Origin: Candidatus Bathyarchaeota archaeon
Lineage (GTDB): Archaea; Thermoproteota; Bathyarchaeia; Bathyarchaeales; Bathycorpusculaceae
Assembly (NCBI GenBank): GCA_963826715.1
Contig: CAWGYA010000008.1
Span: 704,001 to 768,000, forward strand
Direction: 5' to 3'
Length of the DNA: 64,000 nt
Shown: in pieces, positions 7,448 through 19,070 of the stretch
Layout of the letters: every line of letters begins with the position of its first letter
How positions within the stretch are numbered: the stretch's first letter is position 1
The notes under the pieces: model-generated
Told to the model about the DNA's origin: nothing
What the model saw: only the letters and a program-made list of their open reading frames with translations
Database searches by the model: none
Position numbers and translations under genes: made by a program

Positions 7448-7545
7448 TCCATTATCTTATCAAAAGGTTTATTGCGCAGATTGGAAACTAAGCTTATGCA
7501 CTTATTAAATTAAACTTATAATTTACCTACTGAAGATGAAATAAC

Positions 7546-8127
7546 ATGGCAATGAAAGCTCCTGAAGAAAAAAGTGGTCACTTAGTGTTGCCCGGCGAAC
7601 GGCTCGGCGTTATTGAAGAATTCATTCCTGACTCAGGAACATATGTTAAAGACGGCGTCATCTTCTCCAAAATAGTTGGGCGTTCTCTTGTTGATTTGCA
7701 GAACCGTCGCGTCAGTGTTTATCCCGTAGCTAACACAGCTGTTTATCCAAAGGTTGGGCTGGTGATTATAGGCCAAATTGGCAACGCCCAATCTGACAAT
7801 GTTTTAGTTAAAATCTTTAAAGTAGGAAAAAAGAAAATTAGTGGGAATTTCGGGGGGATCCTTCATGTCTCAGATGTATCAGACAGATATGTCGAAGCCA
7901 TGAGTGATGTATGTAAACCCGGCGACATCATCCGAGCTAAAGTCATCAGCGAAAAAAACCAAATTTTTCACTTATCAACCAACGACAAAAACCTGGGGAT
8001 AATAGATGCGTTCTGTTCTCGAGACGCCGCCCTGCTTATACAGGACAGGTATGACCTGAAATGCCCCAAATGCGGAAATATTGAAAGTCGCAAAATAGCT
8101 CCAGATTACGGTAAAGAACCACTTTAG
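7546..8127 (+). CDS. csl4: exosome RNA-binding protein Csl4
   Basis: VLPGERLG, S1 domain, KPGDIIRAKVIS, C-terminal Zn ribbon CPKCG..ESRK. Confidence 0.93.
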   Translation: MAMKAPEEKSGHLVLPGERLGVIEEFIPDSGTYVKDGVIFSKIVGRSLVDLQNRRVSVYPVANTAVYPKVGLVIIGQIGNAQSDNVLVKIFKVGKKKISGNFGGILHVSDVSDRYVEAMSDVCKPGDIIRAKVISEKNQIFHLSTNDKNLGIIDAFCSRDAALLIQDRYDLKCPKCGNIESRKIAPDYGKEPL

Positions 8128-16993: not shown

Positions 16994-17494
16994 GAATTTC
17001 TAACCTCTTTTCCTCGCCTAATGCTTACAGTACAGGATTATATTAGCTTATCATAACGCTCTTTATTTATAAATTTAGCCTGGCAAAAAGCTGAAAGCCT
17101 TGTTTGTAAGCTTCAACCCAGGTTTCATTTTTTATTTGTGGAATCGTGGTTGCCGCAACGCGCGGTAGCCAAGGTCGCTAATCTTTCTATCTTTTCTAAT
17201 CAATCAAAACCCTTAGGCGGGACCTTTATGCCAAATCTTTTTCGTTGCTGATTTAGATCTTGGTGGCGTAGTGGACCGAGTTTCCATTGCAGAATTTTAT
17301 TACCTTTCCATAGTGAATATTTGGAAGTATTGTTTTGCTAACTACCGCTTTTATTATTATAGGACTTCCGGTTTTAAGATGTAAATAACGGGGGCCTTTC
17401 TAATATTTAAGTAACGTTTAGCTCCAACACTTTTTTTGGCTATAAAAGTGAAAAAGTATAAGAACATGTGTGTTCCCTTATTGGGAAGCTGGTA

Positions 17495-17779
17495 GTGAAG
17501 AACGTGAACGTTCCTAAAGAAATCAATACATACTGTCCTAAATGTAAAGCTCACACAATTCATACTGTATCCCTCTATAAACCTGGCAAACGCCGCGCGC
17601 TCGCCCGTGGTGAACGCCACCACGCGCGTGAAAAAGAGGGGTACGGCGGACAGAAATATCCGTTGCAGCATGAATTCGCAAAAACCACCAAAAAGCAGAC
17701 TTTGCGCCTTAAATGCAAAACCTGTAGTTACATGTACCACAAAGACGGCATTCGCCTTAGAAAAATGGTTATACAATAA
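17495..17779 (+). CDS. rpl44e: 50S ribosomal protein eL42 (L44e)
   Basis: PKEINTYCPKCKAHTIH, GYGGQKYP, KTTKK..LKCKTC; exact GTG start uncertain. Confidence 0.95.
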   Translation: MKNVNVPKEINTYCPKCKAHTIHTVSLYKPGKRRALARGERHHAREKEGYGGQKYPLQHEFAKTTKKQTLRLKCKTCSYMYHKDGIRLRKMVIQ

Positions 17780-17799
17780 AATTAATGGAGAAGAATAAA

Positions 17800-17997
17800 A
17801 TGTCTGATTGGAACAAACTCATCCCCAAGCCACGTAGCGTTTTTCTGCGCGTGAAATGCCAGAAATGTGGCAACGAGCAGTTGCTCTTCAGCAACACAGT
17901 TAACAAAATTACTTGTAACGTCTGTGGCGAAGTCCTTGCAGAGCCAACTGGCGGAAGAGCAAACATTAACGGCGAAGTTCTATCCGTCCTCGAATAA
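17800..17997 (+). CDS. rps27e: 30S ribosomal protein eS27
   Basis: PKPRSVFLRVKCQKCGNEQ..CNVCG..LAEPTGGRA. Confidence 0.95.
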   Translation: MSDWNKLIPKPRSVFLRVKCQKCGNEQLLFSNTVNKITCNVCGEVLAEPTGGRANINGEVLSVLE

Positions 17998-18010
17998 GGG
18001 GATGTCCCCA

Positions 18011-18136
18011 ATAGCTGAGTGTAAGCCCATGTCTTCCCCAGTCGGTGGCACAGTAGAATCTATGCTAGAAAATGCCCCGGAATGTTGCAATCATGCTAAA
18101 CTTGGTGGTCAGGGCGCTCTTAGAAGGGATCAATAG
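18011..18136 (+). pseudogene. internally deleted remnant of translation initiation factor aIF2 alpha
   Basis: Occupies the aIF2-alpha slot between rps27e and nop10. Reads (I)AECKP..VG / ESMLENAPE..AKLGGQGALRRDQ*, resembling the N- and C-terminal ends of aIF2-alpha; SD-like GGGGATG precedes ATA; TAG overlaps the nop10 GTG. Confidence 0.7.
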
Positions 18137-18303
18137 TGGTTTGGCAACTTAGAAAATGCATAAAATGTCAAGCATATACACTAAACAAAAGCATTTGTCC
18201 TGTGTGCGCCGGTGGAGTTCGGATTCCGCATCCAGCTAAGTTTTCCCCTGACGATAAGTATTTTAAGTATCGTATGGCAGCAAAAAGGAGCCAAGAACAA
18301 TGA
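18136..18303 (+). CDS. nop10: H/ACA RNP protein Nop10 (missing from ORF track, 55 aa)
   Basis: GTG-started MVWQLRKCIKCQAYTLNKSICPVCAGGVRIPHPAKFSPDDKYFKYR...; TGA overlaps the PAC2 ATG. Confidence 0.93.
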   Translation: MVWQLRKCIKCQAYTLNKSICPVCAGGVRIPHPAKFSPDDKYFKYRMAAKRSQEQ

Positions 18304-19070
18304 AGGAAACTTATATCAAAGAATTCGCTGAAATACAACCCAACAATCCTGTGCTTATCGAAGGCTTGCCTGGATTAGGCTTAGTTGGTAAAATAGCATT
18401 GCGTTACCTAATCAAGCAGCTGAAAGCAAAAAAAATTGCCTACCTTTATAGTCCCCATTTCCCCTACTTCGTACTTGTCAACAAAAAAGGAAATGTGCGG
18501 TTGTTGCGTGGTTCATTCTACTACTATCAGAACCCCAAAGGTAATGATATTCTATTATTTACAGGAGACAGTCAAAGCCAGACCATCGAGGGACAATACG
18601 AAATCGCCGACCGCATGCTTGACTTCAGCGAGAAACATGGTGTCAAAACCATCGCAACAATTGGCGGCTATCGCATGGAACCTCAAGAGAAACCCAAAGT
18701 CTACATAGCTGCAACCAATCATACTATTCTAGAAAAAGCACTCGAAGGCGGAGCAATCCTGAGCGCGTCGGGGAGCCCCATAGTCGGAACTGCAGGACTC
18801 ATCTTGGGCTTGTCAAAATTCAAAAAAATAGAAGCTCTGTGTTTGCTCGGCGAAACACGAGGATATCTGCCTGATCCATTAGCTGCTAAGAGCGTGTTGG
18901 AAGTGCTTAAGGCAACCTTCAACTTCGATTTAGACCTTAAAAACTTAGATGATGAAATCGCTAAAGCAGAAACAATGGTTACCAAGCTACAGCAGATTGA
19001 AGAGAAACGTGCCCTCCAAGCTGAAGAAACCCGTAAGCAAGACGACAAAAAAACAACATATATTTCTTAA
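18300..19070 (+). CDS. proteasome assembly chaperone (PAC2 family)
   Basis: LIEGLPGLGLVGKIA, GDSQ, TIGG, CLLGETRGYLPDP; follows nop10. Confidence 0.9.
   Translation: MKETYIKEFAEIQPNNPVLIEGLPGLGLVGKIALRYLIKQLKAKKIAYLYSPHFPYFVLVNKKGNVRLLRGSFYYYQNPKGNDILLFTGDSQSQTIEGQYEIADRMLDFSEKHGVKTIATIGGYRMEPQEKPKVYIAATNHTILEKALEGGAILSASGSPIVGTAGLILGLSKFKKIEALCLLGETRGYLPDPLAAKSVLEVLKATFNFDLDLKNLDDEIAKAETMVTKLQQIEEKRALQAEETRKQDDKKTTYIS

Follow-up and report, generated by a model that had tools for sequence, protein, structure and literature searches.

Probable replacement of the operon copy of aIF2-alpha by a second copy in a Bathyarchaeota genome, with an in-frame deletion scar left between rps27e and nop10

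The genes for ribosomal proteins L44e and S27e, a short spacer, nop10 and a gene of the PAC2 family follow one another on the forward strand of a 64,000-nucleotide stretch of a Candidatus Bathyarchaeota genome (the window; its genome is G000 in our survey). The arrangement recalls the LSIN cluster (L44E-S27E-aIF-2alpha-Nop10) of archaea, which has been described in association with replication genes (Berthon et al. 2008, PMC2643942), and the window agrees with that description in gene order, in the common direction of L44e, S27e, Nop10 and the PAC2/COG2047-type gene, and in the presence of PCNA, the primase large subunit and MCM near the cluster. It differs from the cluster as set out in that account in the third slot, where the window has only a scar of 138 nt in place of aIF2-alpha, so that the order L44e-S27e-aIF2-alpha-Nop10 is interrupted, and this state is repeated in 43 of 81 genomes of the genus. 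The coordinates of the features are collected in the table.

Table. Features at the interrupted LSIN cluster of the window, with the putative parts of the scar.
Feature	Position	Strand	Description	Evidence
rpl44e	17468..17779	+	first gene of the L44e-S27e-aIF2alpha-Nop10 cluster	Pfam Ribosomal_L44, E=7e-26
rps27e	17785..17997	+		Pfam Ribosomal_S27e, E=1.4e-20
probable deletion scar of the aIF2-alpha operon copy (paralogue A)	17998..18135	+	138-nt spacer	DNA profiles, relatives' scars, bridging contigs
open frame through the scar	18002..18136	+	44 codons; new in-frame ATG at 18002	
N-terminus-derived part	18011..18103	+	~31 codons colinear with A residues 1-31	nhmmer alignment, A consensus
junction zone	18094..18105	+	CTAAA microhomology	aligns to both 5' and 3' profiles
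C-terminus-derived part	18104..18136	+	last 10 codons and stop; conserved AGAAGGGA just upstream of nop10	
nop10	18136..18303	+	GTG start overlaps the stop of the scar frame	Pfam Nop10p, E=7.8e-22
PAC2-family gene	18300..19070	+	overlaps the nop10 stop	Pfam PAC2, E=5e-45

A first-pass annotation, made from the letters of the window, had reported that only 138 nt separate the two flanking genes, and this spacing is correct, with rps27e ending at 17997 and nop10 starting at 18136. The spacer opens with GGGG-ATG(18002)-TCC-CCA-ATA(18011)-GCT-GAG-TGT-AAG-CCC, and the genus consensus at the same place, in scars and full genes together, is ATG-GCT-GAG-CGT-AAG-CC; the ancestral aIF2-alpha start corresponds to 18011-18013 and is now ATA. 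Comparison with this consensus confirms the two substitutions that the annotation had proposed, ATG to ATA and CGT to TGT. The overlap that it described between the end of the scar frame and nop10 is likewise present, with the TAG at 18134-18136 contributing its G as the first base of the nop10 GTG (18136-18138).

Descent of the spacer from aIF2-alpha was examined with two nhmmer profiles built from 20 full-length operon aIF2-alpha genes of the same genus, with the flanking genes left out; the 5' profile takes in the 130 nt that follow the S27e stop and the 3' profile the 70 nt that precede nop10. Over both strands of the whole window, the top match of the 5' profile falls at 18006-18105 (E=4.1e-4, profile positions 9-108) and that of the 3' profile at 18094-18135 (E=8.4e-6), with the runner-up matches at E=0.22 and E=0.1, respectively. 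The two alignments overlap at 18094-18105, where the sequence includes CTAAA, which is carried by both ends of the gene, and the profile alignments place the junction of the deletion within this interval, at the common CTAAA. The N-terminal remnant extends over about 31 codons, through ..AKL, and is colinear with residues 1-31 of the consensus of the operon copy (hereafter A), with 11 of the 31 codons identical by hand count; the C-terminal remnant consists of the final 10 codons, GGQGALRRDQ; and about 660 nt, roughly 220 codons, of the A gene are missing between them. The first-pass annotation had read the spacer as a scar of fused termini, and its C-terminal end is indeed that of aIF2-alpha, but the junction that it placed after six codons lies after some 31, and the segment VESMLENAPE, which it took for the part beyond the junction, belongs to the N-terminal remnant by its colinearity with A. 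Consistent with this layout, the DNA match to relatives with a full A gene passes the S27e stop to about query position 243 and restarts at about 312-320.

The product of the scar is not recognizable in the same way. BLASTP of the 44-aa product against the intact genome copy returned no alignment at E<=100, and a protein HMM of 20 A copies, searched against the 2526 stop-to-stop peptides of the window, left the scar unmatched at E<=10, its best match being an S1-like stretch of the exosome RRP4-type gene at 7540-8124 (E=0.12). Pfam assigned no family to the frame through the scar, and neither the S1 nor the EIF_2_alpha domain could be recognized in its product. At the protein level the scar is a remnant of aIF2-alpha and not a member of the family; its membership is one of descent, seen in the colinear similarity to both ends of the gene at the orthologous site and in the graded series of scars among relatives.

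An artefact or gap of assembly at the spacer was considered and is ruled out by contigs that bridge it and by the occurrence of the same type of scar in 43 genomes, as the first-pass annotation had argued from the decay within it. Two further samples of the study provided Logan contigs that span S27e, the scar and nop10 without gaps (X2 record 3, 17556-18321; X3 record 8, 17540-18230); X1 may be the source sample. Over 766 nt, these contigs differ from the window only at 18039 (C>A, P>Q) and 18059 (T>A, S>T), both of which lie inside the scar and change an amino acid, and the covered parts of S27e and nop10 are identical.

The first-pass annotation had supposed that, in the absence of a copy elsewhere in the genome, the organism naturally initiates translation with an aIF2 of beta and gamma subunits alone. 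The search of the whole genome overturns this supposition, as an intact aIF2-alpha (hereafter B) is present as a 262-aa ORF on contig C2 (G000:C2:389038-389823; also L001:1396-2184 (-)), the one gene that PF07541 finds in the G000 assembly (98.8 bits). B is a full-length member of the family, with scores of 47.7 bits for S1 (cut-off 22) and 97.2 bits for EIF_2_alpha (cut-off 22.8), and it matches the solved aIF2-alpha chains 3aev_A and 1yz6_A with E~2.5e-60 over residues 5-260, sharing with these and with 2aho_B their three-part layout. The gamma and beta subunits are encoded in the same genome, by a 431-aa frame on C8 and a 158-aa frame on C1, respectively, and from these sequences we infer that B supplies the alpha function and that the organism makes a normal alpha-beta-gamma aIF2. 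Because an intact second copy exists, the case reduces to the replacement of the operon copy, and we hold it very probable that the 138-nt spacer is an in-frame deletion scar of an aIF2-alpha gene replaced by its second copy.

The extent of this replacement was surveyed in 81 genomes of the genus including G000, the relatives being Bathyarchaeia MAGs from soil and peat, and all 43 of the short spacers were read. A spacer of about 795-810 nt with a full aIF2-alpha lies between S27e and nop10 in 37 of the 81 genomes, and one of about 800 nt in G069 holds an aIF2-alpha gene with 7 stops; in the remaining 43 the spacer is a scar of 59-300 nt. Together with the profile matches at the window's own spacer, these scars bear out the view of the first-pass annotation that aIF2-alpha has been deleted internally from its operon. 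Most of the short spacers share ATGGCTGAGCGTAAGCC as their first bases and TTTAGAAGGGA-AAATAA, beside the nop10 start, as their last, and the longer ones keep clear pieces of aIF2-alpha, as in G019, which retains residues 1-62 and 238-262. The scar of the window belongs to a 41-codon class together with those of G076 and G021.

Both A and B are found in 21 genomes, A only in 16, a scar with an intact B in 37, a stop-ridden A with B in 1, and a scar without an intact B in 6. Of these last six, three are only 52-65% complete, one has B split over two contig ends, and two have frameshifts or stops in B; a scar without any sign of a second copy is not seen in any genome of the genus with a completeness of 80% or more. 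A tree built from the proteins of the four operon genes that flank the site (54 rows, 483 columns) requires 7 changes of the scar state, at least 3 of them forced by well-supported branches, and by this reconstruction A is lost at least 3 times. G084, a relative of G000, has a scar of 250 nt; on the flank tree the two fall among genomes that retain a full A, so that their loss was independent of the others.

We note that essential genes (PAC2, S27e, L44e, nop10 and B) are split into 2-3 frames in several assemblies of the genus, at loci L078 (G069), L109 (G016), L107 (G067), L108 (G081), L081 (G084), L079 (G088) and L080 (G086); among them, PAC2 is split in G069, G084 and G081, S27e in G016, and L44e in G067. 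Indel errors in assembly are the most likely cause of these splits. The A gene of G069 with its 7 stops and the broken B genes of G086 and G088 were not counted as firm pseudogenes, given that the same or similar assemblies split essential genes.

A and B form two distinct lineages, with supports (UFboot/SH-aLRT) of 97/87 for the A clade and 100/99 for the B clade, and with sequences that are on average 80.5% identical within A, 78.7% within B and 64% between the two. Fixed differences separate the lineages at ten positions, each residue being present in at least 90% of its own clade; the S1 domain holds six of these positions (23, 30, 39, 42, 48 and 49), and, with the outgroup as reference, B has the derived state at six of the ten. 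At position 49, B has Arg where A, the family, the outgroup and the solved archaeal chains shown have Trp, and at position 48 it has Ala in place of the Ser of A, the outgroup and solved archaeal aIF2-alpha (the region corresponds to B residues 43-51), so that B shares its layout with the solved proteins but departs from them at these two residues. Arg49 of B aligns with the third Arg of SELSRRRIR in yeast-type eIF2-alpha, and Ala46 of the G000 B occupies the position aligned with the phospho-serine of eukaryotic eIF2-alpha. In eukaryotes, this loop of eIF2-alpha is the target of kinases and lies near the mRNA.

The surroundings of B are various. In G000, B stands between an SMC_N/AAA ATPase gene and an L30e-NusA(KH) pair that comes with an 82-aa ORF without a family; this L30e-NusA(KH)-orf82-B-SMC context (L001/L032) is common only to G084 and partly to G093, and synteny provided no clean empty-site comparison for B. 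In 18 of 44 B loci, and in G123, a genome of another genus, the last 9 nt or so of B are overlapped by the start of a same-strand ORF of 110-132 aa that matches no Pfam family (for example L044:2277-2672 (+) and L216:1250-1579 (-)); this ORF appears to travel with B, and G000 does not have it downstream of its B. One subclade of two-copy genomes has an aIF1A gene (Pfam eIF-1a, E=1e-22) some 1 kb upstream of B, at L071:1421-1726 (+) and six further loci (genomes G022, G015, G007, G046, G054, G066 and G090), and a treble-clef zinc-finger ORF (PF23477) is found about 250 nt downstream of B in 9 loci.

Outside the genus, a single copy of aIF2-alpha is present in all 102 genomes of the order with a match, a set in which 15 genomes represent 10 other genera of the family (the copy of G172 is split over two contigs). 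The LSIN order is kept, with the copy in the operon, in 14 of these 15 genomes, and among 12 loci from other families it is kept in all 9 that span the whole cluster; two others are cut inside aIF2-alpha, and one, that of G040, does not have it. In G040 (g16, another family), nop10-PAC2 at L031 (G040:C1:72162-75314) lacks S27e and aIF2-alpha within 1.5 kb upstream, and the single aIF2-alpha lies on the opposite strand (G040:C1:85199-85537). As that gene stands about 11 kb away, the cluster of G040 is broken in a different way.

The origin of B is a separate question from the nature of the scar. In a first tree, made without the other genera of the family, A and B grouped together as sister clades, in keeping with a simple duplication within the genus, but the tree no longer settles this once the other genera are added. 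When 15 copies from 10 other family genera are included (LG+C20), A, B and the operon copies of g18, g21, g22 and g23 form one clade (100/97) whose inside is unresolved, and a quick tree places B beside g23 (SH-aLRT 91). It is quite conceivable, at somewhat less than even chances, that B arose by transfer out of another, related genus in the family or by an older duplication, and that it spreads horizontally and displaces operon copies. The varied neighborhood of B between subclades fits such spread, as does G123 of genus g21, which has a B-type copy nested within the B clade of the present genus (99/88) and its own scar of 159 nt between S27e and nop10 in a g21-like operon, whereas two other g21 genomes have the operon copy only. 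On the other side, an AU test does not reject A and B as one clade (p=0.118, lnL difference 8.3), and the long stem of B (0.33, compared with 0.05 for A) makes its placement prone to long-branch effects. The two G123 loci (L216, G123:C69; L227, G123:C125) suggest that B passed between genera and that the resident copy was lost afterwards; the B contig may have been mis-binned, and G123, with a scar in its own operon, would seem to need another copy.

Several features of the scar bear on whether it still has a role. Among the 43 scars, 34 can be read without interruption from the place of the ancestral start to a stop at the nop10 start; the other nine (G063, G060, G093, G081, G083, G019, G004, G047 and G064) are out of frame or without a canonical start. 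Counted from the nop10 start, the readable frames among these nine end at -13, -12 or +28, and nop10 evidently tolerates such scars. Some 15 of 18 deletion classes are in frame where one third would be expected (binomial probability 1.9e-5), these approximately 18 classes being defined by hand and possibly not independent. The upstream stop adjoins, overlaps or lies within a few nucleotides of the nop10 start at 46 of 46 loci of the genus (25 scars and 21 full-length genes), and the same juxtaposition is seen at 7 of 8 outgroup loci; the junction takes the forms TAA|TTG, TAG|TTG, TAGTG and TAATG, with TTG, GTG or ATG as the nop10 start. In G000, G078 and G060 the old ATG has become ATA, and each of these scars has an in-frame ATG 3-4 codons upstream. 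In-frame stops number 0 in frame 0 of the scars, compared with 24 and 36 in the other frames, although this count is weak as evidence because the frame of the scar descends from a coding frame. Values of dN/dS among scars range from 0.19 to 2.8 or are undefined (20 pairs of 19-72 codons, which offer too few sites).

The succession of events that best accounts for these observations can be sketched as follows. With a second, diverged aIF2-alpha (B) at another locus, the operon copy A would have become dispensable, and an in-frame deletion inside it, between short CTAAA repeats, would have taken out about 660 nt, with point decay then following in the remnant. What remained would be the start region of A and its last codons, whose stop adjoins the weak (GTG/TTG) start of nop10, and this remnant would be translated as a 44-codon leader that hands terminating ribosomes to nop10 by termination-reinitiation. 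Coupling of this kind at overlaps or very short distances has been described for archaea (PMC6728339, PMC10666635), and the overlap of TAG and GTG in the window, like TAA|TTG, TAG|TTG and TAATG in relatives, places an upstream stop upon or beside the nop10 start in the manner of the coupled pairs in those descriptions; the difference is that the upstream partner is here a pseudogene remnant, putatively a leader only, and not a gene. We give close to even chances to the scar being a candidate translational-coupling leader for nop10, in which the peptide would be unimportant and what matters would be translation up to the nop10 start. The frame would then have stayed open while its codons drift because the remnant is translated as such a leader.

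The main rival to a coupling leader is that selection acts only on the ribosome-binding site of nop10 and the rest is leftover. The scar would then have no function, its open frame would be inherited from a coding ancestor and still unhit, and its ends would be constant simply because deletions cannot take the last ~20 nt, which hold the nop10 ribosome-binding site, or the bases beside the S27e stop. This is a serious contender, to which we assign a substantial but minority probability. It is favored by the rapid evolution of the interior, where 11 of 31 N-terminal codons match the A consensus, by the position and amino-acid-changing nature of both differences in the bridging contigs (18039 and 18059), by dN/dS values that are often near or above 1, albeit in tiny samples, by the nine of 43 scars that are out of frame or lack a canonical start, and by the existence of scars as short as 59 nt, while the conserved 3' end may persist solely as a ribosome-binding site. 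It does not readily explain why the frame is kept in about 15 of 18 deletion classes instead of in a third, why the region of the start codon is kept even where the interior is unrecognizable, why in 3 genomes the lost ATG is accompanied by an in-frame ATG upstream, or why the length of the ORF is constant within a class whereas the untranslated bases before it vary.

Two further explanations fare much worse. An open frame of 14-94 codons in most of the scars might be taken to encode a small protein with an independent function, but length and interior differ freely between classes with only the ends in common, Pfam finds no matches, and dN/dS is not clearly below 1, all of which makes such a protein very improbable. 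That aIF2-alpha is truly absent and that aIF2 consists of beta and gamma only could draw on Haloferax volcanii, from which aIF2-alpha can be deleted at the price of a severe growth defect (Gabel et al. 2013, PMC3828320), but the same assembly holds an intact B, and B-type copies occur in 37 of the 43 scar genomes, with the other 6 incomplete or carrying a broken or split B; we regard this explanation as refuted. If the scar is indeed a coupling leader, a bolder proposal would be that B is a functionally distinct and mobile aIF2-alpha that makes the operon copy expendable wherever it arrives, with the stump selected as the nop10 leader. This proposal appeals to the fixed changes, which lie mostly in the mRNA-side S1 domain, and to the eukaryote-like Arg in the loop equivalent to the Ser51 loop of eIF2-alpha, while the B-type copy of G123, found together with a scar in another genus, suggests the mobility; at present we consider it rather unlikely; if true, it would mean that a core subunit of an initiation factor is repeatedly replaced in nature wherever B settles.

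The closest precedent known to us from the literature is that of H. volcanii, where loss of aIF2-alpha is survivable but costly (PMC3828320). The two cases are alike in that initiation-factor subunits exist as two mutually replacing genes and that loss of an aIF2-alpha can be survived; they differ in that the duplicates described in H. volcanii are of aIF1A and aIF2-beta and not of alpha, which here itself occurs in two lineages, and in that the alpha deletion reported there is made in the laboratory and costly, whereas the loss of one copy here is natural. A brief keyword search found no published description of aIF2-alpha paralogues, which is thin evidence of novelty.

The breakage of the LSIN cluster reported here is unusual, and the process behind it is ordinary: a second copy, redundancy, loss of one of the two, and a pseudogene stump. 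The genus offers a natural series in which a near-universal cluster comes apart, from the appearance of a second copy through coexistence (21 of 81 genomes) to the loss of either one, with the operon copy eroding by in-frame deletions to as little as 59 nt. For the annotation of metagenome-assembled genomes, the lesson is that an aIF2-alpha missing from the L44e-S27e-Nop10 operon need not mean that a genome is incomplete. For the study of archaeal translation, these genomes provide two natural variants of the alpha subunit to compare, together with a candidate case of a pseudogene stump that may be kept as a coupling leader for the gene that follows it.
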